A stretch of DNA of 64,000 nt from Pseudomonadota bacterium (GCA_043825875.1 JBDRRF010000045.1:10668-74667); one strand, 5' to 3'; counted from the stretch's first letter, positions 18,562-56,954 are shown. Translations and numbers: made by a program. Notes: generated by a model from the sequence alone, not told the origin.

Positions 18562-19284
18562 ATGGCTTTTGTTACTGATAATATTGATTTGATTGAATCA
18601 GCGAAAAAAAATGATGAGTATGCATGGGAAAAGCTTATTAAAGATTATAAAATTTTCATTTATGGTATTATTTTGAAATATCATTTCAAACACAGAGAAA
18701 AAAAAGATGTATTTCAAGAAATTGCTTTAAAGCTTGTTAGTGCTATCAAAGATTATGATCCCTCTATATCTCGATTTTCTACTTTTGTAAGTATTATTGC
18801 AAATAGAAAGTGTATAGATATTTTAAGAGAAGAAAATTATCAACTATTTATAATAACAGATAATACTTTAATTGCAATGAAATATGCAGGTTTTAGTGAT
18901 GAAATTATTAACAATTTAAATAAAATAAAAAATCATGAATTTACAGAAGAAAGCAAATTTTTGGAAGTATTGGAAGAATTGCTTGACAATAAAGCTGACC
19001 TAGATATTTCGACAATTTTGAAATATACCAAAAAATACAAAGGTCGTTATCCACAGACTCCAGATAATATAGATATTCACGGAGAAGTTTTTAACATTAT
19101 TGATAAGATATATCTTGAAGAGATACTTAACAATTTGCCTGCTGATATAAAGAAGTTATTAATTTATCATTGTAAAGGTTATTCATACAATGAAATTGCA
19201 AAATTTATGGAAAAGGATTTTGATTGGGTTAAAAATAATCTATTTCGTATTAAAAAAAAATCACCTTTGATAAGAAAAAAATGA
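18562..19284 (+). CDS. ECF sigma factor with an inserted helical module
   Basis: Sigma2: AWEKLIKDY..DVFQEI..YDPSISRFSTFVSIIANRKCIDILR. Sigma4: LNNLP..GYSYNEIAKFM..WVKNNLFR. Confidence 0.85.
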   Translation: MAFVTDNIDLIESAKKNDEYAWEKLIKDYKIFIYGIILKYHFKHREKKDVFQEIALKLVSAIKDYDPSISRFSTFVSIIANRKCIDILREENYQLFIITDNTLIAMKYAGFSDEIINNLNKIKNHEFTEESKFLEVLEELLDNKADLDISTILKYTKKYKGRYPQTPDNIDIHGEVFNIIDKIYLEEILNNLPADIKKLLIYHCKGYSYNEIAKFMEKDFDWVKNNLFRIKKKSPLIRKK

Positions 19285-19311
19285 GAATTATTTTGATCGA
19301 GAACGAATATT

Positions 19312-20394
19312 ATGAATGTTAAAAATAAAAAAGAACATTTAACCGAAGAAGATATCCTTCTATATTGCGATAATGAATTATCACATGAAGAGAAAACACG
19401 AATACTTCATCATCTTGATTTTTGTGATAGTTGTAAACAGTTGGTTGATAATTATAGATCATTTTTGAATATTATGAATGACATGATTCCGAATGGTCTA
19501 TATTCAAAAAATAAGGAAGATTGCTTAGGATATATGGATATTGCCAATTATATCGAAAACAATATATCTCATAAAAAGAGAAAAAAAATTGAAGAGCACT
19601 TGAGTACTTGTGGCTACTGTTTGCACATTGTAATTGAGAGTATGCTTTCTCTTAAAGAAAACGTTATTGAAAAGGAACCACAATTTTTATTAGATAATAT
19701 TATAAATTCCATTTTTATTAGATTGCGCGAAGAAAAAGCTAAGATTTTGTTGAGTGACTTAAAGAGCTTTACCGAAAAATGTCCACTAAGTATTCGTAGT
19801 TTTTTTATTGAAAAAAAATCAAATATAGAAATTATTATTAAAAATACTTTTGCCTTACCCACACCACGGTATGCATTTGTTTTTGGTGAGCATAGAGCAA
19901 ATGTTTTAAGTCCTTTTGGAAAAGTCCGATTTCCAGTGGTATTTAAATGGATTCCATTTGAAAAAGCAGATAATTATATAGTTTCAATAGATGATATTGG
20001 CTGGGAAGGATACACTTCAAAATCAAAAATTAAAATTTTAGAAGAAGAAATCAAAATAAAATATAAAAATGAATATATGTGGCGACTAAAAGTTAGAAAA
20101 GGAGATGAAATCCTTGATGAAATAACAGGTTTTATTCAAATTGCCACAGAAGAAGAAATAAAAGAACTACAGCATATTGAGATCTATTTAAAAAATATTG
20201 AGTCAAAGCACAACCGGTTGATGATTTGGGCTATAATTCTTGAAGAAAAAGAATTTTATATAGAGGCAATACAGAATTACATAAAAGCTTATGAAATAGA
20301 TCCAACAAATGGTTTAGCATTCAGAATTGCTTATTGCTATGATTGCTTGGAATTAGAAGAACTCCGGGATGAATGGAATAAAAAAATTAGATAA
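19312..20394 (+). CDS. Anti-sigma factor with two zinc-binding HxxxCxxC motifs and a C-terminal TPR
   Basis: HLDFCDSC and HLSTCGYC; beta-rich middle region (LSPFG..VFKWIP..YMWRL); TPR-like end (EAIQNYIKAYEIDP); no clear TM. Confidence 0.8.
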   Translation: MNVKNKKEHLTEEDILLYCDNELSHEEKTRILHHLDFCDSCKQLVDNYRSFLNIMNDMIPNGLYSKNKEDCLGYMDIANYIENNISHKKRKKIEEHLSTCGYCLHIVIESMLSLKENVIEKEPQFLLDNIINSIFIRLREEKAKILLSDLKSFTEKCPLSIRSFFIEKKSNIEIIIKNTFALPTPRYAFVFGEHRANVLSPFGKVRFPVVFKWIPFEKADNYIVSIDDIGWEGYTSKSKIKILEEEIKIKYKNEYMWRLKVRKGDEILDEITGFIQIATEEEIKELQHIEIYLKNIESKHNRLMIWAIILEEKEFYIEAIQNYIKAYEIDPTNGLAFRIAYCYDCLELEELRDEWNKKIR

Positions 20395-20500: not shown

Positions 20501-22174
20501 ATGAAAATAAGAAAATCAAATAAAAAAAATATCATTTTTTTTACTAAAATTATATTTTTTCAATCTTATATTGGCATAGCCTCTTGTGTTTACTATTTAA
20601 TTGCTGCTGTCAAAAACTTAATTAAATACTTGCCATCTCTTTCCAATAAAAAAGACCTTAATATAAATTGCATTCCCAAAGCACGTTCAGAAATATTAAG
20701 AATTCTAAAAATTTTAAAAACCAGTCAATCTTTAGAAAATAAATTGCCATGGCTATGCAAAAAAAATGAATTTAGCCTTAAAGAACTAATAACGATTAGG
20801 GTAAACTATATAAAGAATACGTGGAAATCGTATTTCTCATATAACATTTTTTTTCGTGAAGATATTAAAAATATTTATCGGTGGGGAATTTTATCTTCTT
20901 ATCCAGACCAACCAATTCATTCTTTTTTTGATTTTGGAAATTTAATACAGCATTTTCCTGATGATATTAAAAGTGAGTATTTTTCATATAATATAGAAAG
21001 ACATGATCAAAAGAACTTAAGTTTTATAGGGAAAAATCCCCCAATCTTATGGGATATTCTTCAGCATGTAGTGGAATTGCAGACAGAGTGGGCAGGGGGT
21101 CTGTTTTTTCTGCCTATATCATCAACTTCAGAAAAAGATTGTGATGATGCTTTTTATAAACCTCTATATCGTTTCTCGGTACATTTGATTGGTGGATTAG
21201 TGATTATTGCTGAAATGCTTTCTTCTATTGAGTCAGGTTTGGCATTTACTTCAGCATACTCAAAAAAGTTATCTGCAGATATAACCAAATTCTTTAATAA
21301 ATTGGATGAGCCTAAAGTGTTATTAGCAGATTTGATTTTTATTCATAGCGCTGTCCAAAAAATCTGGCTAATTATAAATGGGCGGTCAAAGGATGAAATT
21401 ACAAAATTTAACAATCGTAATTTAATTTATAATACTGATATTATGAACTTTAAAAAAAAATTTCCTATAGCCGAGCAGTTTAAAAAATTATTTTTAAATA
21501 ATCCTGTAACTATTTTGTTATTTTTTGATTTTTTATCCGATTTAAAATTGTTAAATCCTTTAGATAAAAATCAATACAAGATTTTATGTCATATTTTTAA
21601 AAATGAAATAGATGAAGAAGTTTTATATTGGCTGGCAAACCATACATATTCAAGTTTAATGAACCCTTATATGAAAGAGGGACTAACTTGTTTTGGAAAC
21701 AGGATTGCTCAAATACCGGCGGAACTATTCCAGTATAGAATTAACTGTTTTGGGGTACTTGTTAATACTCTATTTGAAGAACTTGAAGAAAATAAAGAAG
21801 TATTTGAAAATTTTTCGTGTTTTTGCATTTTTTTTTACGACATTCTATTAAGAGATTGGATGATAGAAATTCCTGCTGATGAATTTCCTAATCATCCTCT
21901 TCCAGAGCTTCAACCTGAAGTACTGCAGGATCATTACCCAAATGAAATTGTTGAAAGTGAAACGCTTTTTAGCCGCATTTTAATTTGGTGCAAAGTTAAG
22001 GAAAGTAATTCTTTCAAATCTGCATTTTCTACTTTTCTTAGTCCAATTAATAAACTGATAAATTTTAATAAAAGACCGAATTCAGAAAGCATAAAAGAAA
22101 CCATGGTGAGTTTTAAGCAGATATATAAAAAAGCTAAGCCTTATCTTACAGAACTAATTATTTCAGAAGATTAA
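20501..22174 (+). CDS. Hypothetical protein
   Basis: 557-aa ORF, 2 bp from the next gene; start uncertain. Confidence 0.7.
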   Translation: MKIRKSNKKNIIFFTKIIFFQSYIGIASCVYYLIAAVKNLIKYLPSLSNKKDLNINCIPKARSEILRILKILKTSQSLENKLPWLCKKNEFSLKELITIRVNYIKNTWKSYFSYNIFFREDIKNIYRWGILSSYPDQPIHSFFDFGNLIQHFPDDIKSEYFSYNIERHDQKNLSFIGKNPPILWDILQHVVELQTEWAGGLFFLPISSTSEKDCDDAFYKPLYRFSVHLIGGLVIIAEMLSSIESGLAFTSAYSKKLSADITKFFNKLDEPKVLLADLIFIHSAVQKIWLIINGRSKDEITKFNNRNLIYNTDIMNFKKKFPIAEQFKKLFLNNPVTILLFFDFLSDLKLLNPLDKNQYKILCHIFKNEIDEEVLYWLANHTYSSLMNPYMKEGLTCFGNRIAQIPAELFQYRINCFGVLVNTLFEELEENKEVFENFSCFCIFFYDILLRDWMIEIPADEFPNHPLPELQPEVLQDHYPNEIVESETLFSRILIWCKVKESNSFKSAFSTFLSPINKLINFNKRPNSESIKETMVSFKQIYKKAKPYLTELIISED

Positions 22175-22176: not shown

Positions 22177-24063
22177 ATGACGTTACAAAATATAGATAGT
22201 ATCAAGGAAGGTAAAAAATTTGAAAAACTTCAAGAAGTGTTGAGTGAAAGCCTCAGATTTTCAGTGTATCCCAAAGAGTTGATTGATCGATTTGGGATTC
22301 TATCTCTTGATACTATGAAGGCACTTTCAATTTCGGGATATTACATTCCGCTTTTTGCCTCCATCGATATATTTTGTTCTTTTTTTTCACCGTCACTACA
22401 ATACTATCAAAGTATAAATCCACTGCCGGTAAAACATCTAAATTTTAGCAAATTTTATTGTGAAAGCTATATTAGATTTTTAAAGGCAATTCGAGACATC
22501 CCAGCATTACAAAAGATGGCTAATTTATTTTACTTTGAGAAATATAGGTACAAAAATAAAAATAGTGCATCTGAATTATATTTTGATAACAATCTATTCT
22601 ATGAAACTTTTGTATTTATTATAAGAGATATGGCAATGGTATGTCCACTGACAAATATCCAACAAGTATATGATCCAAGTATTATTTCAATTATAACATG
22701 GGATGATTTATATATTCCATCACGTAAAAAATTTGCATTAGAAGAGGAAATAAATATTTTAAAAAGGTTGGGATTTGATAATTTTATTCCCTCTCCCTTC
22801 TCTGGAAATCATAGTTGGGGAAAAAAAATAGATATTCTTCTTAAATCCTTTTTCCTAGTGTCTCAAAATCAAAACACTAAATATAATCAGCCAATACACC
22901 ATATAAACGATCTGGCTAAAGAAAAAAAGACACAAAAGGTTGAGCTGCTTAACAGGAATAAAAAAATCATTAAAGACATTTCGAAAACATCTTATCTCTT
23001 TGATTATAAGCTTATTGACCTTTATATACTTAATGTTGATGATTTCAACCCGAGCGACAAATTGCGAAGAAAAATTGCACAGCTACAAAATATTTCCCGT
23101 CAGGCTATTGAGAAAAGTCCATTTAATACAGAATATACGGATCCAAAAGATAGTGGAGTCATCAACACATTTTACCTGTCGATGGATGACGATTTATTTA
23201 AGCTTAAATATCTTGAGAAGCAACCCATATTCTTTGGCAACCAACCTCCGATAAAAGAGCAGGAAAATTTGGGGGTTAGATTTTGTATGTTGGAAGATAT
23301 AAAATCTATTAGTGAAAAAATCTGCGAGAAAAATCGCTATCGATACCCCCATATAACTGTACATAAGCTTATCTCAATCCTGTTGTGTAGCGACATAATA
23401 AAATATCTTGGTAAAGTACCTGAATTAAATATAATAATGGATCTTATTATTTATACACTTTACTTCGATTCTGAAAAAGAGTCTTCTACTAAAAAAGTTC
23501 GCTTAAGCATGAAAGATCTAATAAATAGTAGGAAAGAAGTGGATCTTACCAATCTCAAAGAATTGCAGGAGAAGCTATTCCTTGAAGCACCGCTATTAAA
23601 AACATATAGCTTTGTACCCAATATTAATAACTATAATATATTATTCAACAGTATTAATGATTCTGATGATTCGTTAATGCGGATGTCGGGATGTAATCGT
23701 GTACTAAATTTATTTTTTGGTTGGGGTGGTTTATATCTGCAGGAGAATGCACTTAATAATTCTCAACAGGAAAAAAAGAATAAACACGACGAAGTAAACA
23801 AAAATGAAAATGAAGAGGAATACAATTTATCCACAAACATAAGGGATATACGTGCTAATAGCCAAAATATTTCACTTTACTCTCCAAACACCTACGTTAT
23901 TGAAACTAATTGTAAATACCTTTTAACATCAGGTCATGGATTAAATAGAACTGTTTTTAAGACTCAGATTAAAGATGATAAGCTATCTAAATTTTTAAAT
24001 AATACAAGAGAATATTTTTTAAACATATTAGTCGATGAAGCCATTGAACGAAAGTGCAGCTAA
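22177..24063 (+). CDS. Hypothetical protein (possibly a degenerate vWA-associated component)
   Basis: 628-aa ORF overlapping the next gene; the family guess rests only on the segment DDDLFKLKYLEKQPIFF. Confidence 0.65.
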   Translation: MTLQNIDSIKEGKKFEKLQEVLSESLRFSVYPKELIDRFGILSLDTMKALSISGYYIPLFASIDIFCSFFSPSLQYYQSINPLPVKHLNFSKFYCESYIRFLKAIRDIPALQKMANLFYFEKYRYKNKNSASELYFDNNLFYETFVFIIRDMAMVCPLTNIQQVYDPSIISIITWDDLYIPSRKKFALEEEINILKRLGFDNFIPSPFSGNHSWGKKIDILLKSFFLVSQNQNTKYNQPIHHINDLAKEKKTQKVELLNRNKKIIKDISKTSYLFDYKLIDLYILNVDDFNPSDKLRRKIAQLQNISRQAIEKSPFNTEYTDPKDSGVINTFYLSMDDDLFKLKYLEKQPIFFGNQPPIKEQENLGVRFCMLEDIKSISEKICEKNRYRYPHITVHKLISILLCSDIIKYLGKVPELNIIMDLIIYTLYFDSEKESSTKKVRLSMKDLINSRKEVDLTNLKELQEKLFLEAPLLKTYSFVPNINNYNILFNSINDSDDSLMRMSGCNRVLNLFFGWGGLYLQENALNNSQQEKKNKHDEVNKNENEEEYNLSTNIRDIRANSQNISLYSPNTYVIETNCKYLLTSGHGLNRTVFKTQIKDDKLSKFLNNTREYFLNILVDEAIERKCS

Positions 24064-26608
24064 TAAAAAGGACATTGTTGTGACAGATCATACTTTGCTT
24101 AAAAGCTTATATTACGCAGAAAAAGATAATCAAAAAGCTTGCATTGCAACAGAATCACCCGGATTACTCATTAATCTGCTACTAAATATAATGCCTGGGA
24201 AAATTTCCACAGTTCTATCATATCCCTATTATACAAACGCTTCTCAAAATGTATATATGATAAAAATACAGGAAATACCTCATGAGGCAATCAACGATGA
24301 CAGTATTGACTTGCACTTAAAGCGTCTACAGTCTTGCGGTAATATTATATATGCAGATAAATCTTTATTTGGAAATAGGCAACAAGGAACTATTGCTGAT
24401 CTTGCTAAGATGCTAGTACCAAACCAAATAGAGATTGAACGCTCATATGAAAATCTTGTTTTCTGGTGTGATGGGGCAAGAATATATAATAATGTTATAG
24501 ATGTTCTTTTTAGTCTAACAGTTAAAAACCTCAGAGTAGCCAGGCTAAAATTTGGAAACAATGAAAGATATTTGGTAAGGGCACAAGGTATCTCTTCGCC
24601 TGTCATTTTATCAAAATTTGGAAATATGGAAGGGCTTACAATGTTTTATAAGCCCTTGGTATTATCTGAAATATGGATCCAGTGGGGTTGGCGATATGAT
24701 TTTGTTGATGCATCTACTTATGAAATTCTTAGAGAGAAAAATGAGACTATATTCATCTTTAGAAACGGTTCTTCAGAAAAAATAAAGTCTGATAGCATAA
24801 ATTATATTCCTCTAATAAAATACATGAATTTGAAATTCGATATGATACAAGTTCATGAAGCAGCCCCAAGAGATTTTAACTATCATATCGAAAGAGAGTT
24901 AAAACTAAAAAAAAACACTCTGACTGATTGGGCTAGGATAGAGATAGAAGATTTACTTCAACAAGAACAGGAAATTAGGGAGAGAATTGAATGGCTTAAA
25001 AATATGGAATCGGTTTTTACCACTCAGGTTTCTTATAAAGTAATGTATTATCCTTTTAGTCCTCACAAAAAAGACCCAATATTTCCAACATATTTTTTTA
25101 GGAAGCAACACCTTCGTCAACTCCGCCAGTTGATGTTTTACTATGGTTCGGTAGGATCATTGGGTGATGGAGTTATGGTAACCACCTGTAGTTTTGTAGA
25201 GCAATCTAAACTTGGTAGATACAATATTGATAAGAAATATTATCCCCGTAGAGGTATAGTATTCGAGACTTGTAAAGATTGGATGGCCTATTCAGGATTA
25301 AGAGTTTTGATTCCCGAAGGATTTGATCTTTATCCTTACCTTGAAGTAGAAGAAGAAGACAAAACGGTTATAGTAAATGCTTTTCTGGAAACTGTAGGTT
25401 GTACAATCAACAGTAGAAAAAGGGAGGATATTAGAGCAAACCCTGAGAGATATCTTTATTTCATTTTTCCAAAACAAACTAATATTATTTCAGATTGGGA
25501 AAAGACAGATCTTGAAGCTATTATAATTCATGAAAAGGAATTTCGCAAATTCGATATCAAAATCGCAAATATGGGTATTCATTTTGCCATGAACGAAGAG
25601 GATAAAAATATAGCAAATCAAATATTTAACAATCATGTTACAGAAAATATTAAAGAACAGTTTAATAGCGTTATTACCCAGTTGACGCAATACTTAGAGG
25701 ATGCTTTTCAATATGAGCGACGTAAATTCAAGAAAAAAATCGAAGAATTTAATACTTATATTGAGAATCAAGATCAAAATTTTAAGGAATCAAAAAAAGC
25801 TGTTAATGATTCTGTTGGCAGGATAAAAAAATCAGAGAAAATCATTACTAGTTATGAAATATATCTTAGTAATTTTGTTGAAAGCTATACTTCAAAGATT
25901 CAAAGTAGTACTAAAAATATTGAAAATTTCATTAATGAGATTAAAGCTTTTATGCAGACGCTTAACAATGATATTGATGCTATAAATAGAAATAATAGTG
26001 AAGAATTAAATACAAAACTTTCTTTATTAAAAGAAGTAAAAAAGAATACATCTGAAACAATAGAAGAAATTATAAAACTTCAAGATAAACGAACTAAAAG
26101 CAATAAATCCTTACAAGAGATCAGAGATCTTGAAAACAAATTTTCGGATAAATATAAAGAGGCAAAATGGAACCGTTTAGAAATAAAAGATAATTTAAAT
26201 AAAATTTGGGAGATTGAAAAATCTTTTGAGGGCTTAAAATTAGAAATCGATAAAATATCTGAGCATATGCAAAAAATTGCTGAATCATCTTACCGTAGTA
26301 GTGTATATTCAGTATCATCAAATAAGCACCATGAAATTAATGTGTGGGTTGATGGTATTATATCGCATATGAACGAATTTAAGACAATGGCCAACAATCA
26401 GACAATAGTCAGCCATGATTTAACAAAGATTATAAATCAATTTAGAGAACCCATTGATCATATTACTGAAGATATTAAAACTTCACTTCCTCATTTAATA
26501 CGAAGAGAAGAGACTATCAACCAAAAAAAAATATTTTTCAAGGAAGCAAACAAATATTTAAAAGAACGTATTTCTAGTATTTATGAACTATATAAGAATT
26601 TTTCATAG
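24035..26608 (+). CDS. Hypothetical protein with globular N-terminus and long C-terminal coiled coil
   Basis: 857 aa; heptad-rich K/E/N/I region over roughly the last 320 aa. Confidence 0.75.
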   Translation: MKPLNESAANKKDIVVTDHTLLKSLYYAEKDNQKACIATESPGLLINLLLNIMPGKISTVLSYPYYTNASQNVYMIKIQEIPHEAINDDSIDLHLKRLQSCGNIIYADKSLFGNRQQGTIADLAKMLVPNQIEIERSYENLVFWCDGARIYNNVIDVLFSLTVKNLRVARLKFGNNERYLVRAQGISSPVILSKFGNMEGLTMFYKPLVLSEIWIQWGWRYDFVDASTYEILREKNETIFIFRNGSSEKIKSDSINYIPLIKYMNLKFDMIQVHEAAPRDFNYHIERELKLKKNTLTDWARIEIEDLLQQEQEIRERIEWLKNMESVFTTQVSYKVMYYPFSPHKKDPIFPTYFFRKQHLRQLRQLMFYYGSVGSLGDGVMVTTCSFVEQSKLGRYNIDKKYYPRRGIVFETCKDWMAYSGLRVLIPEGFDLYPYLEVEEEDKTVIVNAFLETVGCTINSRKREDIRANPERYLYFIFPKQTNIISDWEKTDLEAIIIHEKEFRKFDIKIANMGIHFAMNEEDKNIANQIFNNHVTENIKEQFNSVITQLTQYLEDAFQYERRKFKKKIEEFNTYIENQDQNFKESKKAVNDSVGRIKKSEKIITSYEIYLSNFVESYTSKIQSSTKNIENFINEIKAFMQTLNNDIDAINRNNSEELNTKLSLLKEVKKNTSETIEEIIKLQDKRTKSNKSLQEIRDLENKFSDKYKEAKWNRLEIKDNLNKIWEIEKSFEGLKLEIDKISEHMQKIAESSYRSSVYSVSSNKHHEINVWVDGIISHMNEFKTMANNQTIVSHDLTKIINQFREPIDHITEDIKTSLPHLIRREETINQKKIFFKEANKYLKERISSIYELYKNFS

Positions 26609-37131: not shown

Positions 37132-37204
37132 CTTTTAATAATATTAATAGAATCGAAACTTTTTTTAATATAATTTTTAAAACAAATAAATCGGTAACAA
37201 TCAT

Positions 37205-43140: not shown

Positions 43141-43151
43141 GGAGCAGTAAT

Positions 43152-43652: not shown

Positions 43653-43678
43653 TCAAATCAAAACATCAGGAGACAAAA

Positions 43679-47134: not shown

Positions 47135-47143
47135 GAGTATCAT

Positions 47144-49879
47144 ATGCTTTGTACCCAATGTGGCTGGATGTTTGATGAAAAAACCGACTGGTTTTGTTCT
47201 GGATGTGGGAAAAAAATTCGTGAGATAGCGGTTGACGATAATAAAACGCAATACACCCTTTATTACGGTAGAGGATCGTCACCTCTTAAAATTTCCATAG
47301 AAAATATAGGTGAATTTCCGGTCCAAATAACAAAATGGCAGTTGGTAAATCTCAAGGCCCTTAAATGTTTATGCGATGGCCGTAAACATGCGCCGGTAGC
47401 TCTTTTGAGCAATGATACAAAAGTAATTGAAATTAATTTTGACGATTCAGGATTGCCGTTTACCCAAGCAGGAATACTGAAAATTTATGCAGGAATTATT
47501 CCACCTATACAAGTTGTTATTATCTGTACTCCTGTACCGGGCTTTATCTTCCATATTGGGAATGAACTTGTGCGAAACAGCAAGGTTTGCTGTCTTGGCG
47601 ATCTTTCGAAGGAAATTGAATTGCCCTTAAAAATAGAAGTGCGTCATGCGCACCGTGTAAAATGGACTAAGTTCAGGATGTATCCAAAAAATCATCCTGA
47701 ACGATCTTTTCCCTTACCCAGCGGGTTAGAATTTCCGGTTGACTTGTTCGAAGGTATTCCATCAGAAATTTGTTGTCCATTAGGAAGAATTACAGGAGCA
47801 GAAGTAATTTGCGCTGAATTTCTATTTGAGAATTGTCAACCCGAAACTTTTACTATCGATATAATTCCCAAAGCCAAAATTAAGCACGAGCAAGATTTTA
47901 ACCCCATAAACGAAAATGCATTTATTAAGGGAAAATCAGGTCCACGAAACATAGAAATATCATTAGTAAATGATGGTGGTGTTGGGGCTGATATTGTTGA
48001 TATCAAAATTGACAACTTGTCTAAAAGTTGGATGAATCTGGTGTTGGCGATAGATAACCCAAAATTGATGCCATACGGTGATTCCAAAAGTAGGTTTGTT
48101 ATTAAAATAGATCCGGCAATGATTAAGAACACTCTTGAAGAAGGTCGGATTCAGATTGTTTATAGAGAAGACGATATAAGCAAAATTCAAACCCAGGAAA
48201 TATTCATCCCAGTTGAAGTAAAATATTCTGAAACATTGCCTTTTCCTATTGGAATTGACTTCGGAAACACAAGCACCTGTGTATCCTATTTTAACCCTAA
48301 AATAAATGAGTTTGAACTTGTGGCTCTGGATGAATTTAATGGTGAAAAAAAATATGAGTTTCCCACCATAATTGAGTTTAATCGATTTTGTGCTCCGGGA
48401 GAACATGAATCCGGTACCGGCTTTGGATATGGGTATTTGCTGGGTGAAACAAGATATGCTGTAGAAGAAAGAGGAGATAATCTATTAAATAGAGCATGGC
48501 ATTTTAAACAGGGTTTGGGACAAAATAAACCTATTAGCAAGCTTGATAGAACACATGGCAGATTGAGACAATTTACAGCAGAAGTTCTAACTAAATATTT
48601 TATCAAAGAAGTAATCCAAAGGTTTGAGGAAAACACCGGATACGATGTGAAAAGTATTATTCTAACCTATCCTGCCGGCTTTATGGATGACCAAATTAAA
48701 AGCCTGAAAAACGTTGTTGAACAGATTAAACCTGATTTGGAAATTATCACTGAAATAAGTGAACCTGAGGCACTTGCACTGCATTATCTTAATAAAAAGG
48801 AAATAATAAAGGATAAAGAAATATTTGCGGTATTTGACTATGGCGGAAGCTCGACTGATATTACCATAGGACAGATTAGTTGTGAAGATGGTGAAAAAGA
48901 GATCGAAGTATTGGTTAGCATGGGCAGCAACCAGCTGGGTGGGGACCTTTTGACGTTTGAAATCGCAAAAAGTATTTATAATAAAATCCAGGATGAGTTT
49001 AAAAGAACAAAGAAGGAAATCGATATGCTGTTTCCGATGAAACTGGATGATATTTTTTTAATATCACATTCAGAAAAAGAAACGCGATTTAATTTTATGA
49101 ATTTAATGAATAAGGCGGAAATGATTAAAACAAATAGAGAAGGACTTTATTGGAAGCTATGTGATCATCAAGAAATTCCTGTTGAAATTCATTCCTTTCA
49201 TAGGGTTAGAGGTCAATTTGAACCAATCCGGGTCAATTACAATATTGAAGATTTTAAAAATGTAGCAGAAAGATATATACAGCAAGGTCTGAATCACCTC
49301 AATGGGATGCTGCAGCATCTTAAGGAGCATGAGATTATAGAAAAAAACTGTTTTCTGGATTTCGTGGTGCTGGGAGGAAATTCATCTAGGTTAGAATTAG
49401 TTAAAAAATTAGCAAGAGATATTCTTGGACTAGATGAAAACAACATTTTCTTTGAAAGCGAAATTACAAAAACCGGTGTGGCATCTGGCGCGGCCCTTTA
49501 TGGAATGAAAATGCAAGATCCAGACAGTGATATTGTTTTTATCAATAATAGACGTGTTCGATATCCAATAGGTATCTACAAGCCTAATTCCTTTGATGTA
49601 ATATTTCCTGCAGGTGCTCAAATTGGTGCAACTATTAAACGACAATGGAAACCGGTCAAATTGTTTCTTTATAGAAATTTGGATCCGTCCAACCTAACCC
49701 ATTCATCTTTGGAACCTGTGACAGATGTTGGATATGATCTATCCCGGTATAAATCTGATAGTTCTAAAAAAATAACTTTTTATCTGACACTATCGGAAAA
49801 TGGTGTGAAAATTCAGCCCGAGAATAATGCGGAATCATCCAATAATGATTCGGATTTAATAGAGTTTAAATGGTATTGA
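47144..49879 (+). CDS. Atypical Hsp70-family ATPase with N-terminal double zinc ribbon and Ig-like domains
   Basis: CTQCG..CSGCG; Ig-like NIGEFPVQI and NDGGVGADIVDI; Hsp70 motifs IGIDFGNTST, LTYPA, ISEPEALA, FDYGGSSTDI, LGGD and LGGNSSR; short C-terminus. Confidence 0.88.
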   Translation: MLCTQCGWMFDEKTDWFCSGCGKKIREIAVDDNKTQYTLYYGRGSSPLKISIENIGEFPVQITKWQLVNLKALKCLCDGRKHAPVALLSNDTKVIEINFDDSGLPFTQAGILKIYAGIIPPIQVVIICTPVPGFIFHIGNELVRNSKVCCLGDLSKEIELPLKIEVRHAHRVKWTKFRMYPKNHPERSFPLPSGLEFPVDLFEGIPSEICCPLGRITGAEVICAEFLFENCQPETFTIDIIPKAKIKHEQDFNPINENAFIKGKSGPRNIEISLVNDGGVGADIVDIKIDNLSKSWMNLVLAIDNPKLMPYGDSKSRFVIKIDPAMIKNTLEEGRIQIVYREDDISKIQTQEIFIPVEVKYSETLPFPIGIDFGNTSTCVSYFNPKINEFELVALDEFNGEKKYEFPTIIEFNRFCAPGEHESGTGFGYGYLLGETRYAVEERGDNLLNRAWHFKQGLGQNKPISKLDRTHGRLRQFTAEVLTKYFIKEVIQRFEENTGYDVKSIILTYPAGFMDDQIKSLKNVVEQIKPDLEIITEISEPEALALHYLNKKEIIKDKEIFAVFDYGGSSTDITIGQISCEDGEKEIEVLVSMGSNQLGGDLLTFEIAKSIYNKIQDEFKRTKKEIDMLFPMKLDDIFLISHSEKETRFNFMNLMNKAEMIKTNREGLYWKLCDHQEIPVEIHSFHRVRGQFEPIRVNYNIEDFKNVAERYIQQGLNHLNGMLQHLKEHEIIEKNCFLDFVVLGGNSSRLELVKKLARDILGLDENNIFFESEITKTGVASGAALYGMKMQDPDSDIVFINNRRVRYPIGIYKPNSFDVIFPAGAQIGATIKRQWKPVKLFLYRNLDPSNLTHSSLEPVTDVGYDLSRYKSDSSKKITFYLTLSENGVKIQPENNAESSNNDSDLIEFKWY

Positions 49880-49893
49880 AATAAGGTGATACA

Positions 49894-50820
49894 ATGTTTG
49901 AGCGTCTGCTTAATTGGATAGGAAGAAATTCTACTAAAGGTAATAGGCGTACTCATAATATCCCAAGGCCTAATAGTCAAGATTTGCCCTCAAAATTAGA
50001 TAAATTACTAAGAGAAAGCAGGGGATGGACTGATGAAGATCTTAAGGAGATTGTGGAATCAGTTTACTTATTAAATAGCTATTGTTTGAAACTGCGTAAT
50101 GATTTAAGTCAATTGAACCGTCAGGTAAGTTCTGCCATAAATAACCAAAACAGTTCCCTTTTTTTAAATCATTCTCAGGAAATAAACAAAAGTAGTATGT
50201 CTATAGAACCTTTTTCAAAAATATATGAAGATATAGATGTTCAAAACAAATCATTTGTTGAGAAAAAACCTGATAATTTCTCTGCGGATAAATTAAATAA
50301 CTTACTTATGATTTGCCGGAAATATGAGGAGCTATTTGAAGAAGCTATTAAAAGTCTTGATAACAGAAGTTATCAATTGGTTGATAATTTTAACAAAGAG
50401 TTTAAAGTACCAATTAATCAAATTCTGGGACAGAAGTTAAAACTTGAAAAGTCATATCAATATTCTGATCCAAGCAAATACAAAATCTTATTTGAAAATC
50501 TTAATAATATTAATTTAGATTCATTGTCTCTATCCTTATGTGATGCTCTCGAAATGAAAATTACTCATGGTAAAACAAATGCGGATAATCAGAGTAATCC
50601 CATTCTTGAAAAATATATTGGCAAAATAACTGAAATGTTGGATTGGAAAGTGATAAATCCTGAAGCGGGTTCACTATATAACGAAGCCGAACACGATATC
50701 TTTGACCGCCGGCCTGCCGATAATAATAAAAAAGGTGTGATTTATAAAGTTCACAAAAGAGGATTTAAAGATTCAGGGAATAAAATTCTTTTAAAGGCAA
50801 AAGTAGGTATCACAACATAA
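49894..50820 (+). CDS. GrpE-like protein
   Basis: Coiled coil, then a GrpE head-like C-terminus: INPEAGSLYNEAEHDI..GVIYKVHKRGF..ILLKAKV; directly follows the Hsp70-like gene. Confidence 0.75.
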   Translation: MFERLLNWIGRNSTKGNRRTHNIPRPNSQDLPSKLDKLLRESRGWTDEDLKEIVESVYLLNSYCLKLRNDLSQLNRQVSSAINNQNSSLFLNHSQEINKSSMSIEPFSKIYEDIDVQNKSFVEKKPDNFSADKLNNLLMICRKYEELFEEAIKSLDNRSYQLVDNFNKEFKVPINQILGQKLKLEKSYQYSDPSKYKILFENLNNINLDSLSLSLCDALEMKITHGKTNADNQSNPILEKYIGKITEMLDWKVINPEAGSLYNEAEHDIFDRRPADNNKKGVIYKVHKRGFKDSGNKILLKAKVGITT

Positions 50821-50850
50821 ATAATTATTTAACAGGTAGTGTTAATTTAA

Positions 50851-51390
50851 ATGGAAAAAACAGAAATGCTAAAATCGATCGATACAATAGTATCGTCAAT
50901 CGATCTAAAACTCGAAAAAATTATAGATAAGCAAGAAGTTAAAAGAGAAGAAACTATCAATGAAGTAAAATTTTTTTTTGATAACCTTGCTGCAAAAATA
51001 TCTACAACATTTATTGGTGATTTACCGCGTTCACTGGAGTTGCTTGAAATTAAAATTGACGAGCTAATAAAGTATCAAGGAGATTTCAGTTCAAGCTTGT
51101 CCCAGATTTTGGCAGGATATGAGATTAAAATTGAAGAACGGATTAAAGAACAAATAAAATTATTTCAGAAAGAATGTATCGATAATCTGAATCAGCATCA
51201 AAAAATGCATAACGAAAAGTTAAGTGAGTTTATTAGAGCTGTAAATAATTTGTCTAACGTAATTACACAACTGAATAACAGTGTGGACAATTTTGATTCG
51301 GAAAGGTTTGAGCCGGCGATGAAACGGCTGGAAGATACAATAGATAAATTAAGTACAGATAAAAAGAAAGGATTTTTTAAAAGAAAGTAA
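50851..51390 (+). CDS. Coiled-coil protein with basic/aromatic C-terminal tail
   Basis: Heptad-rich sequence ending DKKKGFFKRK. Confidence 0.7.
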   Translation: MEKTEMLKSIDTIVSSIDLKLEKIIDKQEVKREETINEVKFFFDNLAAKISTTFIGDLPRSLELLEIKIDELIKYQGDFSSSLSQILAGYEIKIEERIKEQIKLFQKECIDNLNQHQKMHNEKLSEFIRAVNNLSNVITQLNNSVDNFDSERFEPAMKRLEDTIDKLSTDKKKGFFKRK

Positions 51391-51392
51391 AA

Positions 51393-54300
51393 ATGACAAG
51401 ATATGTCAAATCTATAAAATATCTATTAATGATAATACTGCGTATATTTTTGATCGTATTGATATCAGTAATAGGGTGCTCATCACCGCTTAATGAAAAA
51501 TCTATTGTTGAAGAGTTTATTTTTGATAATCAAGGAAAAATACTTTCGAATGTTAAGCCTGATGGGAGTAAAATAGTTTTCAAATATAATGATAGAGCAT
51601 TACCTAAAGACATAATACTGCCAGATGATCAAGTACGTTACGGGTATGATAAAAACGGGAACAGAATCTGGATGGAAAACAAAACCGGCCGTACTGAATA
51701 TAAATATGATGCACTTGATCGAATAAAAGAAATTATATTTAGATACAGTCCTGTGAGAACCATTGAATATGATTATGACCCTTGGGGTAGAATGCATGGG
51801 ATTATAATAAAACAAGAAGGCCATAAAATATATCATATAAAGTATGAATATGACCTTCTGAATAATATTAAAAAAATTATCGACGGCAAAGAAATTATTG
51901 AGTTTGATTATGATATTGCACATGGTAAGGTAACTCGCAGATTACCTAACGGCATAAAAACAATTTATAATTACTCTCCCGCTGGTATGCTTAAGCTTCT
52001 AAAACATTTAAGCCCTCAAAATAAACTCATAGTCTCCTATCAATATAGTTATGACCATTCTGGTAGGATTATACGGATTATTGAAAAGACATTATCAAAT
52101 ACGCAAATTGTAAACTATCATTGGGATATAAATGGTAATCTTAAAAAGTTAATATTACCAGATGGTAGTATAATCTACTATGATTATGATGAGTTCGGAA
52201 GACGGTCTTCTTTATCAAGAAAAAATGAAACAATTGGTTTTAAATATGATGGTTTTGGAAGGCTTGTACAATCGGGTGTAACCCGATATGGCTGGAATGA
52301 AAATGGGAATCTAAGTTCTTATAAAGGCAAAAAAGACAGCATAGAATTTGATTATACTGCTACTGATATGCTTTCAGAAATAAGGGCAAGGGGTTTCAAA
52401 TCACAATTCAGGTATGATGGTGACGGCAACCAGATTGCAAGTAAAATACAGGATGACATTTCTTTTTATTTGCCGAATCCATTGACACCGCAAGGTAATA
52501 CACTGGCCGAATTTGATAAGCATGGGAACTTGCGTTTCACATATCTATATGGGAAAGGATTACTTGGACGTCGCAATTCAAATGGAAGCATGAATTATTG
52601 TCTTGAAGATGGTTTTGGCAGAATTCGCAATATTTCAGACATAAAAGGGCGAATATTATCTCACCAACAAATGGTCTCTGCAAGAATAGAACGTCGTATT
52701 ACAGCAGACAGAATGCGTAGTACTTTTGATAGAAGAATCAAAAAGGCATGGGAACTTATTGAAAAAGGGCAAAGACTGCCATTGCCTTCACAAAGTGAAA
52801 TAGAAGCTCATGACCGATACTGGACCGAAGGAATTTATAACACTTCAGATCCCTATTACAAGATGATTCAATCTCTTGATACGGCGCAGGACATTAGAGA
52901 CATAGATACTTTTTTTAAAGTGTATGTTTCAACTCATTTTCTTATAGCAAACGACATGGTGGTAAGGCCTATTGCAGCTTTAACGCGCGGCTGGGGATCA
53001 TTTTTTGTTAAACAGACTGCAAGAACAGTTCATGATTTATTAACTAATTTTATTGAGTCAGTCTCGTCTGACGGGACTTCCATAACCAAGAACATAAATG
53101 AAAAAGGTCTAAGAACGTATGAAGATATAGCGAGCTGGAGCAAGTTTGCTATAGATATTAATAAAGTATTAACAGATAATTTCTCTACAGAAAATGCACT
53201 ATTCCGGAAGTTTTTACTTAAGAAGAATACAAGAGTTGTGTGCCTTGCTGAAGGCAGCCCCAATGGTTTTAATTGGGCTTTGAAGGCAAAATCAATATAC
53301 ACGGTTGTTATAGGACCTGTGCAAACTAAAAGCAGATGGTTTTTTAATTGGGCGGGATTTGGGAAAGATACGGCGCCTATTGTATTCAAAAAAGCTGTTC
53401 AAAAAGCTATAAGTAAAGGAAGGGATATCGTAAGTGATCAGATATCCAAGCAAACCAAAGATAATAAAGATAATGATGAAGATGAAGAAAAAAGCAAAAT
53501 CAAACAAGATTCTCAACGCAAGAAGAAGAGAAATAAATATGGTCTAAACAGTTGGTGGAATAACTTCTTCTGTCCATGGTGTGATGATGGAGGTGGACCT
53601 CCTGGAGGTCCACCTCCTCCTCCACCCCCTCCTGGAGGGGGTGGAGGAGGTATATTTGGTGATGGGATTAGCAGTTTGAGCTTTATCTATGATCCTTTTG
53701 AATTCATTTCTGCTAAACTTGGAGGCATTGATCTTAATGCGGAGCCATTTGCTGCCGAGAATTTAGATATTGGGCAACTTAAAGCTGTTGTTTATGATCC
53801 AGATAGAAAACGACTTGTGCTGGTGGGAGATAAACAAGCAGATTTTCCATCGATTCGGGCAAGTGATCTTGCTGAAGCTTTTTTATTGGTTCATCATCCT
53901 AAATTTTATGGCCCCCAATTCACACTAGATCCGTCTGACCCCAAAAATCCAGAAGGTAAATGGCTTAAGGCCGTATATATTCCGGAAATTATTCGTGGTA
54001 CGGAAATAGGAAGAATAATGTTCCAAACCGATTGGCTACTCAAACAATATGCCTTTGGTGTTGAAATTGATGATGATAATAGGCTTAAAGAAAGACAATC
54101 TGGAGTTGAAGATTATAAAAGTCAGGCGGATATATCATTTCTTGCAAATTCATCAACAGTTGAAACAAAAGAATGGATTCAAAAACTTAAAAATAAATGC
54201 CATAATATTGACATTGATATAGGTGATTTATATTTAACTGATAAAGAACAGTGGGCCAGAATTTGGATAGAAGTAAAAGACAAAAAGGTTAAATTATACG

Positions 54301-56954
54301 GAAATGATAAGTCCATATTTATTGAAGAACCCATGATGTTAATTAAAGCAAAACAACAAGTAATTGACCCAACTAGCAAAACAGGGCTTCGAGATATTGA
54401 AAGTGACAATCCTTCGGCTAAATCATTTGCATGTGAATTTGAGTGCCTTTATGATGAAATTGCCCATGAATCACCTGAATTCGCAAGATTAAAAGAGTTG
54501 ACTAAGGCTATTGTGATTGCCAAATGGTTGAAGAAACAGGATATCAAACTTAGCAATGAATGGCTCCAGGAAAGTATAAATAAAAATACGCGTTATGTGG
54601 ATAGGGTTCCAACTCTTTCATGGAAAAAACAGCAGCGAATTGACAATCCTAGGCCTGGAATCAGATATAAAATAAATACTATTCATCTTTTTGGTGGAGT
54701 CGATCAGACAGTTGATCCTATATATATAAATGATAATTTCAAAGTTGCCAAAATTGAGTATGAGGTGAAAAGAAGACTTGAACAAAATGATTTGGAGAGA
54801 TTTGAATTTAATATAGGACAACAAGAATATTCAGGAGTGGTTATTTCTTTGGGGAAGTTGGTTAAAAAAAGAAAAAAGTCGAGAATAAAATATGTAGATG
54901 GAGTAAAATACGAGATCGGGGAAAATGGAAAGGTTGCGAAAAGTACTCTACCTAATGGTGTTACTGTTACCTGTTCATATGATACCAGTGGTAGGATGAA
55001 CAAAATCAAATTCAGAAATAATACAGGATGGAGTTTAAACGGCAGAAAAACGACATCCGGAAGCAACTGGAAACTTAATGGTCCAAGAGGAAATCAAATA
55101 GAATACCAATATGATCAATCAGGTGCTCTAAAATACATCTATATAGACGGGAAAAGAACAGCATCATATCATTACAATAATGAGCTTAAGAATGTGACGA
55201 TTCAATATCCAGAATATACGGAAGATTTTAGTTATGATGAAATCGGCAATATTACTGAATATAGTGTGAAAATTAGGAATCAAGATGAAGAAAAAATAAA
55301 TTATACCTATGATGATATGAGCAACATTTCTGCCATTTATAGTACTAATTTTGGAAAAATTGATATCTCTTACATTAAAAACACCACGCTTCCTGAAGAA
55401 ATAAAATCTCAAATAGGATCTATAAAATATACCTATAATTCTGAACTGGGAATAAATGATATTTATTTCCCTGAAGATCGTTCTATTCATTTCCAATATG
55501 AAGATAATAATGTAGAGAAGATTATTTTTAACAGTGGCAATAATAACTCTGAAATCTTATTTGACGAGAAAAATCGGATTGCTAAGATTGAAGAGATGGC
55601 AGGAGATACCTTAAAATTCAAATATACAAAGAGTGACAGACTTGATTCTGTTGTAAGCTTAAATGAAAAAGATACAAAATTTTTATATGATAAAGATAAC
55701 AGGTTATCGAGAATTAATTTCCCGGATGGCCGTCGGATTGATTGCGAATACAATAACAAGATTTCTCAGGTTGAAGATAAACAGCCGCCAATCCAAAACC
55801 TAAAGTTAAAAGAATATCCTGCAGTTGGAAGGGCTAAACCAAACAATAAAACGATAAAGAAAACAATACGGTTGAATGACCATATTTCGGATATTATAGA
55901 ATCCACTGGCAGTATGAAAAATACATTAGTGTTGGATGTATATCAGGATGAAAAGAAAAAGGTCTATTTAAATGTTATAAATCCAGAAGAAGCCAAAGCC
56001 AGAGAAGTAAAAAATGAAAAAGCAATAAAAATTGTTGAGGCGATAAACCTTTTATCTACTACAAAAGGCCGCATAGGAAATACTGTTAAGAAAAACATTG
56101 AGGAACTGCATAATATGATTTTTCCTTTAACTTCATCGGAGATACGCATATTACCTGATGGTGGGGAAATTAAGGTAAAACCAAGGTTATTAATCATTAG
56201 TAATATGTCAAATTATAAATATGCAAATCTTCATAAGATAAAAATGCTTTCTAATAACTACAAATTGTATATAAAAGAGCAGGATACACCGACTCAAGAA
56301 TTTATATCTAATATTAAGAATATTGCTAAAATAAATAAAAATAATGATAATGTAGCATTTATAGTGAGTTTGCCTGACACAATGAGTCAGGAGGTTCAAA
56401 AAGAATGGAAGGCACTAATAGCTAAATATAAATCTCTACTGGAAGAAGATAAAATACTCGTTGAACCTTCAAAAGCTGAATTTACGGAATTTATAAAAAA
56501 ACAGAGGGATGACATTGTGGTCATTGAAGTAACTCATAATGAAGATGGCCTAGTATTGAAAAATAATGAGAAAATTACATCAAGTGATATTTTACATTCC
56601 GGTAAATTATCCATAAATTATCTGTTAAGTGGTCTAGGAGTCTGTAGTTTAACCAATGCAGAAAAAGGTAAGTTGGTTTCCGCGTTTAGAAAATCTGGTG
56701 TAAAGGTCGTAAATGCATCATCGAAGCCCGTATCTTCCGAAATTGCCTTTAAACGAATAGAAATGTTTTACGAAGTACTAAAGAACCACAAAGATTATAA
56801 ATTTGATATTTACGGGGATGAAATCATTGATATTATAGACCAAATGCTAATAAAATCTAATGATACTATTAATAATATAAATATTGAAAAATTTAATGAA
56901 GGTCATATTAATATAAGTAAAAGGAATTTTATAGAAGACACTTTTTTCATATAA
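51393..56954 (+). CDS. RHS/YD-repeat protein (lipoprotein-like signal) with two YD blocks and a C-terminal CHAT/caspase-like domain
   Basis: ISVIGCSS lipobox-like motif; YD repeats at about aa 40-420 and 1170-1455; Gly/Pro linker; C-terminus VIEVTHN..GLGVCSL..LVSAFRKSGVKVVNASSKPV..MFYEVL. Confidence 0.85.
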   Translation: MTRYVKSIKYLLMIILRIFLIVLISVIGCSSPLNEKSIVEEFIFDNQGKILSNVKPDGSKIVFKYNDRALPKDIILPDDQVRYGYDKNGNRIWMENKTGRTEYKYDALDRIKEIIFRYSPVRTIEYDYDPWGRMHGIIIKQEGHKIYHIKYEYDLLNNIKKIIDGKEIIEFDYDIAHGKVTRRLPNGIKTIYNYSPAGMLKLLKHLSPQNKLIVSYQYSYDHSGRIIRIIEKTLSNTQIVNYHWDINGNLKKLILPDGSIIYYDYDEFGRRSSLSRKNETIGFKYDGFGRLVQSGVTRYGWNENGNLSSYKGKKDSIEFDYTATDMLSEIRARGFKSQFRYDGDGNQIASKIQDDISFYLPNPLTPQGNTLAEFDKHGNLRFTYLYGKGLLGRRNSNGSMNYCLEDGFGRIRNISDIKGRILSHQQMVSARIERRITADRMRSTFDRRIKKAWELIEKGQRLPLPSQSEIEAHDRYWTEGIYNTSDPYYKMIQSLDTAQDIRDIDTFFKVYVSTHFLIANDMVVRPIAALTRGWGSFFVKQTARTVHDLLTNFIESVSSDGTSITKNINEKGLRTYEDIASWSKFAIDINKVLTDNFSTENALFRKFLLKKNTRVVCLAEGSPNGFNWALKAKSIYTVVIGPVQTKSRWFFNWAGFGKDTAPIVFKKAVQKAISKGRDIVSDQISKQTKDNKDNDEDEEKSKIKQDSQRKKKRNKYGLNSWWNNFFCPWCDDGGGPPGGPPPPPPPPGGGGGGIFGDGISSLSFIYDPFEFISAKLGGIDLNAEPFAAENLDIGQLKAVVYDPDRKRLVLVGDKQADFPSIRASDLAEAFLLVHHPKFYGPQFTLDPSDPKNPEGKWLKAVYIPEIIRGTEIGRIMFQTDWLLKQYAFGVEIDDDNRLKERQSGVEDYKSQADISFLANSSTVETKEWIQKLKNKCHNIDIDIGDLYLTDKEQWARIWIEVKDKKVKLYGNDKSIFIEEPMMLIKAKQQVIDPTSKTGLRDIESDNPSAKSFACEFECLYDEIAHESPEFARLKELTKAIVIAKWLKKQDIKLSNEWLQESINKNTRYVDRVPTLSWKKQQRIDNPRPGIRYKINTIHLFGGVDQTVDPIYINDNFKVAKIEYEVKRRLEQNDLERFEFNIGQQEYSGVVISLGKLVKKRKKSRIKYVDGVKYEIGENGKVAKSTLPNGVTVTCSYDTSGRMNKIKFRNNTGWSLNGRKTTSGSNWKLNGPRGNQIEYQYDQSGALKYIYIDGKRTASYHYNNELKNVTIQYPEYTEDFSYDEIGNITEYSVKIRNQDEEKINYTYDDMSNISAIYSTNFGKIDISYIKNTTLPEEIKSQIGSIKYTYNSELGINDIYFPEDRSIHFQYEDNNVEKIIFNSGNNNSEILFDEKNRIAKIEEMAGDTLKFKYTKSDRLDSVVSLNEKDTKFLYDKDNRLSRINFPDGRRIDCEYNNKISQVEDKQPPIQNLKLKEYPAVGRAKPNNKTIKKTIRLNDHISDIIESTGSMKNTLVLDVYQDEKKKVYLNVINPEEAKAREVKNEKAIKIVEAINLLSTTKGRIGNTVKKNIEELHNMIFPLTSSEIRILPDGGEIKVKPRLLIISNMSNYKYANLHKIKMLSNNYKLYIKEQDTPTQEFISNIKNIAKINKNNDNVAFIVSLPDTMSQEVQKEWKALIAKYKSLLEEDKILVEPSKAEFTEFIKKQRDDIVVIEVTHNEDGLVLKNNEKITSSDILHSGKLSINYLLSGLGVCSLTNAEKGKLVSAFRKSGVKVVNASSKPVSSEIAFKRIEMFYEVLKNHKDYKFDIYGDEIIDIIDQMLIKSNDTINNINIEKFNEGHINISKRNFIEDTFFI
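53589..53650. repeat. Two adjacent perfect inverted repeats encoding a Gly/Pro linker
   Basis: 14-bp arms at 53589-53602 / 53604-53617 and 17-bp arms at 53616-53632 / 53634-53650, each centred on a single T. Confidence 0.9.

Follow-up and report, generated by a model that had tools for sequence, protein, structure and literature searches.

A two-module island joining a MoxR ATPase block to a tubulin-Hsp70 core in a member of the Pseudomonadota

A run of 19 genes (g1-g19) in a 64,000-nucleotide stretch of DNA from a Pseudomonadota bacterium (GCA_043825875.1 JBDRRF010000045.1:10668-74667; hereafter the window) forms an island composed of two modules, one built around a MoxR AAA+ ATPase (module A) and the other around a tubulin-like GTPase and an Hsp70 protein (module B). 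On the best reading of its sequence, this two-module island was acquired horizontally and encodes an envelope-spanning apparatus. We propose that it is a trans-envelope threat-sensing conflict system that would work, by analogy, like the Esr pathway of actinobacteria, a proposal to which we attach about as much belief as doubt. In its favor, module B is intact in 32 of the 57 distinct tubulin loci with sufficient flanking sequence, the cargo of protease, RHS, TPR and WD40 proteins varies around this fixed core, and the spread is patchy, with low GC content and flanking insertion sequences (IS). Module A is rare, yet a few unrelated records also show it joined to module B.

Organization of the island

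The island is an unbroken run of open reading frames (ORFs) on the plus strand (18562-56954), in agreement with a preliminary description of this DNA, except that the latter counted 18 consecutive genes rather than 19. The overlapping or near-abutting arrangement reported there also holds, with intergenic gaps from -29 to +134 bp, four overlapping pairs, and the widest gaps between g2 and g3 (106 bp) and between g10 and g11 (134 bp). So do the AT-rich composition (GC content 32.1% vs 39.1% for the genome) and the IS remnants at both borders. The features are as follows (TM, transmembrane; aa, amino acids; ECF, extracytoplasmic function; MIDAS, metal ion-dependent adhesion site).

16867..17301, minus: left IS remnant, IS200-type transposase (Pfam Y1_Tnp, E 2e-35)
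18562..19284, plus: g1, ECF sigma factor, 240 aa (TIGR02937, 65 bits, cut-off 43; Pfam r2/r4)
19312..20394, plus: g2, anti-sigma-like protein, 360 aa (zf-HC2, E 1.5e-11; no TM segment)
20501..22174, plus: g3, orphan, 557 aa (no family match)
22177..24063, plus: g4, orphan, 628 aa (no relative)
24035..26608, plus: g5, 857 aa, probable fvmX7-like N-terminal region and long coiled coil
26642..27286, plus: g6, orphan, 214 aa (no family match at cut-off)
27303..28325, plus: g7, membrane protein, 340 aa (four TM segments predicted by hydropathy)
28322..29413, plus: g8, orphan, 363 aa (no family match at cut-off)
29467..37131, plus: g9, giant beta-rich protein, 2,554 aa (single N-terminal TM anchor, residues 29-47)
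37205..38413, plus: g10, single-TM protein, 402 aa (TM 103-121, predicted exported helical domain)
38548..39858, plus: g11, MoxR AAA+ ATPase, bpMoxR-type, 436 aa (PF20030, E 3e-32)
39855..41183, plus: g12, double Zn-ribbon and PQQ/BamB-like propeller, 442 aa
41170..43140, plus: g13, signal peptide, vWA domain with full MIDAS, C-terminal TM segment and cytoplasmic tail, 656 aa
43152..43652, plus: g14, small multi-TM protein, 166 aa (hydropathy)
43679..47134, plus: g15, FtsZl1 (Tubulin_2) GTPase with long helical C-terminal part, 1,151 aa (PF13809, E 3e-62)
47144..49879, plus: g16, Zn-ribbon, beta-rich region and Hsp70 nucleotide-binding domain, 911 aa (HSP70, E 1e-14)
49894..50820, plus: g17, GrpE-like protein, 308 aa (PF01025, E 7e-6, barely above cut-off)
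50851..51390, plus: g18, coiled-coil protein, 179 aa (compositional matches only)
51393..56954, plus: g19, exported RHS protein, 1,853 aa (RHS repeats, E 4e-29)
57358..58686, plus: right IS remnant, IS5-type transposase split by a stop (DUF772, E 3e-18; DDE_Tnp_1, E 8e-9)

Module A comprises the ECF sigma factor, the anti-sigma-like protein, five orphans, the probably fvmX7-like coiled-coil protein, the 2,554-aa beta-rich membrane protein and MoxR; module B comprises the Zn-ribbon propeller, the exported MIDAS vWA protein, the small membrane protein, the FtsZl1 tubulin, the Zn-ribbon Hsp70 and the GrpE-like protein. Family matches above the curated Pfam and NCBIfam cut-offs were obtained for g1, g2, g11, g15, g16, g17 and g19, and none for the remaining 12 of the 19 proteins. 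The matches listed above bear out the dedicated sigma/anti-sigma pair and the MoxR, tubulin-like GTPase, Hsp70 and GrpE components of the preliminary description, and MoxR, tubulin and Hsp70 all have intact nucleotide motifs. Hydropathy predicts TM or signal segments in g7, g9, g10, g13, g14 and g19. The g2 protein is soluble and consists of two zf-HC2 fingers, a beta-rich part and a TPR-like end; its C-terminal half may be DUF928-like. The g10 protein, which may be SurA-like, had no significant match among PDB sequences.

A 137-aa ORF lies between the left IS200-type transposase and the ECF gene. Promoter and terminator scans of the island gave results no better than those of shuffled sequence, and the terminator-like sites on the plus strand all fall within ORFs. 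In run X1, possibly the source of the DNA, one contig is identical over 37001-57000.

Several observations concern the surroundings of the island. An ORF overlapping the IS200 element ends in a short HTH_Tnp_1 fragment (17430-17512, plus; E 0.001, below cut-off), which looks like an IS3-type gene broken by that element. Beyond the right IS, a stand-alone TIR-domain protein (60348-61292, minus; TIR_2, E 1e-14, with weak ThsB matches) is accompanied by two unknown genes, which suggests a wider defense island. Small membrane-like ORFs without a family lie close to both ends of the island (17621-18034 and 62874-63308, both minus).

The tubulin-Hsp70 core and its spread

With an alignment of 26 tubulin relatives as query, 168 genome matches and 204 metagenome matches were obtained, and the best 80 from each source were taken, giving 160 tubulin loci; unlike this alignment scan, a scan of genome contigs with the single g15 sequence gave no match. 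For the census of the core, 155 loci with a called tubulin ORF were reduced to 79 whose flanks reached 5 kb or more upstream and 3.5 kb or more downstream, and to the 57 distinct loci mentioned above at 90% identity. The 32 full-core loci encode the Zn-ribbon propeller, vWA and Hsp70 proteins in the same order as here, and a further 10 of the 57 have a partial set. The full core spans Latescibacterota, Acidobacteriota and metagenome records; Latescibacterota account for 12 of the 32 loci, and the core is present in all 12 Latescibacterota tree rows. Given this share, and because the profiles were built from the same loci, the independent lineages are few, perhaps six or seven. When the neighbors of g15 were scored by tblastn against 165 other tubulin loci, homologues of g13 and g16 adjoined the tubulin in 53 and 49 of them, respectively, and homologues of g14 were found at the matching place in five. 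The preliminary expectation that the genes co-occur elsewhere is thereby upheld for the core.

The MIDAS residues of g13 (D38, S40, S42, T101 and D121) are invariant in 22 of 22 sequences, and its family profile matches vWA domains in PDB (E 2e-5). As g13 carries a signal peptide and a C-terminal TM segment, its vWA domain is predicted to be exported and hence could not be the cytoplasmic partner of MoxR. Thus, the MoxR-vWA pair of the preliminary description could not be substantiated: judging from predicted topology and neighborhood, the one recognizable vWA domain is part of the tubulin module. The N-terminus of g12 is matched by neighbor-family hidden Markov models (E 4e-9 and 7e-8), and its family profile matches BamB at E about 0.01. 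The T1 and T4 motifs of g15 are intact, and in a quick tree it groups with the tubulins of loci L087-L090 (support 99). Comparison of g17 with the GrpE-ended neighbors of acidobacterial loci gave an hhalign probability of 81%. None of 60 relatives has a close relative of the tubulin, and 4 of the 60 have distant tubulins only; among viral contigs, neither the tubulin family nor the g5 family had a relative.

The cargo encoded downstream of the core in other genomes includes trypsin, WD40, TPR, RHS and CHAT proteins, and giant Ig/ASH-repeat proteins flank some cores (L104 and L126). A MotA-like gene lies within the flank in 14 of the 32 full-core loci, with OmpA-domain partners, and also in three extended acidobacterial loci. 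The stator profile gave no match at E 1e-4 in the genome of the window (G000), and the possibility that g18 is a stator remnant was rejected (hhalign 0.6%).

Some of the loci collected show further arrangements. One Ignavibacteria clade (L042, L045, L048, L049, L061, L066, L072, L074, L080, L159 and L160) has a full-length FtsZl1 without the core, adjoining efp, accBC and an enoyl-ACP reductase gene, and possibly with a housekeeping role. The acidobacterial cores L185 (368-19901), L186 and L187 additionally encode another Hsp70-like protein, a MotA/OmpA pair and two membrane proteins that end in GrpE, and their RHS or CHAT genes share the unnamed DUF1598-like domain that g19 also contains. A genome of the same genus (G002) carries a different Tubulin_2 locus (L177, 118-14865, minus), which includes genes for a vWA protein and a TrwB/VirD4-like ATPase.

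The MoxR block, its link to the core and the RHS protein

The g11 protein (PF20030, 112 bits, cut-off 27; Walker A, Walker B and SPRK motifs intact) belongs to a MoxR clade of 20 members with at least 48% identity (support 0.98). DNA of the joined modules was read directly in one other record, L089, in which the order is g9, a g10-like gene, MoxR, a g2 homologue, g13, g14, tubulin, a 153-aa ORF and an RHS protein, so that the junction of MoxR, tubulin and RHS genes recurs. Identity to the island proteins is 28% over 1,300 aa for g9, 52% for MoxR and 33% for g2, and g10 matches the gene at the equivalent place weakly (E 0.002). The g2 homologue lies between MoxR and vWA genes, that is, inside the joint of the two modules. 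On the 37,120-bp contig of this record, the locus tags of the g5 homologue (-507), MoxR (-513) and tubulin (-517) have the same spacing as g5, g11 and g15.

Altogether, a link to a tubulin or a g5 relative exists for 5 of the clade's 19 other MoxR clusters: the L089 record; Syntrophobacter sp. SbD2 (SBDP2_330007 and _330012); and, indirectly, two clusters paired with tubulins through equal longest contigs (43,398 bp and 11,303 bp) and one paired with a g5 relative in the same manner (18,775 bp). Among the other 14, seven are on contigs shorter than 9 kb and seven on contigs longer than 9 kb with no link in the lists compared. The joint is kept among records whose MoxRs are 52-55% and tubulins 32-36% identical, in both high- and low-GC DNA. 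The preliminary description had treated the locus as a single machine; the joint does recur, but the locus is not an indivisible unit, being a widespread FtsZl1-vWA-Hsp70-GrpE module fused to a rare MoxR block. In 31 of the 32 full-core loci there is no MoxR within the 10-kb flanks covered, and the clade MoxR was not found in five more tubulin-bearing genomes or in 12 extended stretches of 9 genomes. Its profile matches 1 of 400 genomes of the class, distantly; 4 of 400 genomes of the phylum have distant MoxRs, the nearest found within it, and these four sit in FtsH ternary loci (AAA, bpMoxR, fvmX2, WD40-vWA, TPR and fvmX7). Plasmids contain only distant MoxR/RavA proteins (73 records, below 60% identity).

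With respect to the other components of module A, the N-terminal profile of g5, for which 12 relatives were found, matches a 12-sequence fvmX7 alignment (hhalign 63%, E 7e-5, 164 columns; 14 controls at most 1.1%). When about 1,900 proteins are ranked with the fvmX7 profile, five g5 relatives come first, and a search in the opposite direction recovers two fvmX7 proteins. Counting against this link, g5 alone is unranked in its own genome. Neither g5 nor its relatives have a Pfam fvmX match. The C-terminal half of g5 is helical in an AlphaFold2 model (pLDDT 54), with weak, ACT-like Foldseek rows. Taken together, the profile comparisons suggest that g5 is probably fvmX7-like. Residues 338-354 of g4 align with the hallmark of FtsH-ternary vWA domains, a motif of 17-20 residues that is not significant; the hhalign probability is 1-2%, and g4 is unranked among 3,387 genome ORFs. 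No relative of g4 was found among 8,000 scored candidates, nor any usable Atlas match, and we consider it a weak candidate for the cytoplasmic vWA-like partner of MoxR. Comparison of g3, g6, g7, g8 and g10 with the FtsH-ternary accessory alignments gave nothing above 3%. The g9 protein displays recurring blade-like motifs and probably contains several beta-propellers, which are weakly predicted.

Two further loci are relevant to these families. The planctomycete fvmX7 domains (L218-L245) often stand at the beginning of open frames of 1,100-1,400 aa, sometimes as tandem copies. A MoxR locus in G476 (L180, 3352-19900, minus), with two AAA proteins, a CHAT-AAA fusion, several orphans and no Pfam fvmX match, may be another undescribed ternary variant.

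The RHS protein g19, which by its recurrent position can be assigned to the system, consists of a signal/lipobox-like segment (VIGC), YD repeats, a variable region, an unnamed conserved domain (774-1161), further YD repeats and a C-terminal domain. The same architecture also follows the core in L089, L183, L184 and L185, and in L186 and L187 the unnamed domain is accompanied by a Pfam CHAT protein encoded on the other strand. L089 and L185 retain a full RHS core with a DPxG motif ahead of the variable region, whereas the RHS core is shortened in g19 and in L183. The unnamed domain matches DUF1598 weakly, in 1 of 8 members (E 0.025), and has no PDB match; within the phylum of G817 it is present in 16 of 301 genomes, and five fetched neighborhoods of it contain no core gene.

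The preliminary description of g19 as an RHS-caspase is thus secure in its first half and moderately supported in its second. The C-terminal domain has no Pfam match; Atlas assigns it to CHAT (0.95) with a low feature count (129/256), its model (pLDDT 52) has Csx29 as the top Foldseek match (E 6e-3), and VIA Z is at most 6.1 (separase 5.0). L089 retains both H1715 and C1751, and, as read by eye, the RHS protein of L183 and the gene after that of L185 end in His/Cys motifs. This domain is therefore probably caspase-like, with H1715 and C1751 as the predicted dyad.

Possible function and comparison with known systems

Among the roles that the preliminary description suggested for a trans-envelope machine, sensing or conflict fits best in our view. 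From the established parts, their sequence-predicted topology and their linkage in other records, we infer the following sequence of steps. The g9 and g13 proteins would bind foreign or damaged material at the cell surface, and g7, g13 and g14 would relay the signal inward across the membrane, where a MoxR hexamer, together with g5 and a cytoplasmic partner, for which g4 is the weak candidate, would set an ATP-dependent threshold. FtsZl1 would then assemble under the membrane, and the private Hsp70/GrpE pair (g16/g17) would build or dissolve this assembly. Two outputs can be envisaged: the ECF sigma factor would be freed from the zinc anti-sigma factor, and the RHS-packaged caspase-like protease would be activated. 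Since the protease is predicted to be exported and g2 to be soluble, direct cleavage of g2 by g19 would need an extra step, namely release or re-entry to the cytoplasm. In the relatives with a MotAB/ZorAB-like stator, the latter would replace the MoxR block as the input. A bolder formulation, which we hold with considerable doubt, is that of a contact-sensing immune machine of diderm bacteria that forms a class of its own and has interchangeable inputs. In this view, a filament of FtsZl1 controlled by a dedicated Hsp70/GrpE pair would be switched on by a ZorAB-like ion motor or, in the island, by the MoxR block and a giant surface sensor; epibionts or predators would then be met with an ECF regulon and with a caspase-like protease caged in the RHS protein. 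Such a machine would be to Gram-negative bacteria what Esr is to Actinomycetales, its effector being cytoskeletal.

Several observations weigh against the threat-sensing proposal. The tubulin occurs without any core neighbor in 15 of the 57 loci, 11 of which represent the Ignavibacteria clade, and MoxR is shown by only 1 of the 165 tubulin loci. The ECF gene was found in no other locus compared, the L089 stretch ending short of its place, and L089 is without Hsp70/GrpE beside the tubulin. For the cytoplasmic partner of MoxR there is only the weak candidate g4, the MoxR clade is not sister in the tree to the four classic FtsH-ternary MoxRs, and the match of g5 to fvmX7 drops to 0.9% when only the eight planctomycete sequences are aligned and to 0.2% when only the four others are. 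The g9 protein, a giant propeller in the preliminary description, shows the blade-like motifs but has no significant Pfam or PDB match. Finally, the PADLOC matches to ZorA fall solely on the coiled coils of g5 and g18, both without TM segments.

Alternatively, FtsZl1, Hsp70/GrpE and MoxR might play no part in conflict and instead remodel membranes, or assemble, export and anchor a giant surface structure (g9, g13 and g19). Such an envelope construction machine would accord with the membrane remodeling proposed for FtsZl1-vWA-OmpA operons (Makarova and Koonin, 2010; PMC2875224), with the dominance of chaperones in the gene set, with the giant Ig/ASH-repeat proteins beside L104 and L126 and with the constancy of the core in Latescibacterota; the patchy spread, the low GC content and IS flanks of the island, the variable protease and RHS cargo and the tie to fvmX7-like and bpMoxR-type parts speak against it, and we deem it unlikely, if a serious contender. 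The exported RHS protein with its variable region, and the full RHS core and DPxG motif in L089 and L185, evoke instead a polymorphic toxin, displayed or exported so that its cargo attacks neighboring bacteria. We consider an offensive contact system of this kind quite improbable because the C-terminal domain is conserved as His/Cys caspase-like rather than swapped, g19 is followed by an IS and not by a small immunity-type gene, the RHS core is truncated in g19 and L183, and many cores have no RHS gene.

A mosaic, in which the two modules are independent and came together through co-transfer without working jointly, appears very improbable. Module B is mostly seen without MoxR, a 134-bp gap lies ahead of MoxR, and 7 of the 19 other clade MoxRs are unlinked on the longer contigs; nevertheless, MoxR overlaps g12 by 4 bp, the joint persists at the degree of divergence given above, and in L089 the anti-sigma gene lies inside it.

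The interest of the threat-sensing proposal stems from the state of knowledge of both classes of parts. The papers found here demonstrate no function for FtsZl1 tubulins, which were described in 2010, and nearly all that is said of the MoxR ternary systems is predicted. The island unites the two, with a gene order that survives about 50% divergence of MoxR and 65% of tubulin, and it offers direct readouts: the ECF promoter, the predicted protease dyad and a polymerizing GTPase with its own chaperone. If the island senses surface attackers, it would exemplify the detection of epibionts or predators by Gram-negative bacteria and the involvement of a bacterial tubulin in immunity.

With regard to known systems, the locus is, by its predicted domains, a member of the FtsZl1-vWA operon class (PMC2875224), with which it shares the FtsZl1 GTPase domain with a long helical tail, the exported MIDAS vWA protein and the adjoining small membrane proteins. 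In the accessible portions of that article, RHS, ECF and giant sensor proteins are not described, and its neighbor table has one DnaK, one GrpE and one propeller entry and no MoxR. The kinase, P-loop GTPase and OmpA proteins that are frequent but optional in these operons have no Pfam or NCBIfam match in any of the 19 proteins, among which MoxR alone carries a P-loop motif.

For each class of part, a role in conflict has been predicted (Kaur et al., 2020; PMC7159879). As far as the portions of that work used here extend, the MoxR-vWA FtsH ternary and beta-propeller ternary systems share with the island a bpMoxR-type ATPase, a probable fvmX7-like protein, several orphans, a probably caspase-like protease and a membrane-anchored beta-rich component; the island differs in having no ubiquitin-like system and in being joined to a tubulin/Hsp70 module (PMC7159879). 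No second AAA match or P-loop that could represent the FtsH-type AAA+ third component was detected among the 19 proteins. The P-loop of MoxR is GPPGVAKT, not the GXXXTAKS of beta-propeller ternary systems (among 30 aligned relatives one has GPPGTAKT and none TAKS), the architecture of g13 differs from the vWA with a C-terminal four-bladed propeller of the beta-propeller ternary system, and no island protein matches the bpX family. Among the variable parts of the DO-GTPase GAP1-N2 systems, tubulin is likewise accompanied by vWA-TM proteins and Hsp70 by GrpE, but these themes are described there as 'non-overlapping' and as dependent on DO-GTPase and GAP1 (PMC7159879), whereas tubulin and Hsp70 are adjacent in the island; no GTPase P-loop or GAP1 family match was found in the 19 proteins, nor was a Zorya-type pair of MotA-like and OmpA/MotB-like stator proteins found in the island. 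Thus, judging from the predicted proteins, the island falls outside the FtsH ternary, the GAP1 and the Zorya systems.

TPR-CHAT/Csx29 and other CHAT proteases are linked to the release of sigma factors. The island resembles these in encoding a predicted His/Cys caspase-like domain together with an ECF sigma and anti-sigma factor, and differs in that an exported RHS protein carries the protease at its end. In the epibiont-sensing Esr pathway of Actinomycetales, as far as the available part of that preprint goes, the sensing of Patescibacteria requires a surface propeller whose gene accompanies those for MoxR and vWA proteins (10.64898/2026.09.08.750141). Common to both would be a large beta-propeller sensor at the surface that acts together with MoxR and vWA to change transcription, as predicted for the island from its sequence. 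The kinase, phosphatase, FHA, transglutaminase and Esx components of Esr were not detected in the island, to which the ECF/anti-sigma pair, tubulin, Hsp70 and RHS-CHAT are in turn peculiar.

As the preliminary description surmised, no named system matches the whole set in PADLOC or in the literature compared, which also included a preprint on ParA (10.64898/2026.10.19.760177, seen in part), and a full-text search that covered few subscription papers did not find the combination of parts. By analogy, Esr would provide the strongest outside support for a sensing function, and the island is best regarded, on its predicted proteins, as a joining of two predicted classes of systems, FtsZl1-vWA operons and MoxR ternary systems, of which it is filed as a variant.

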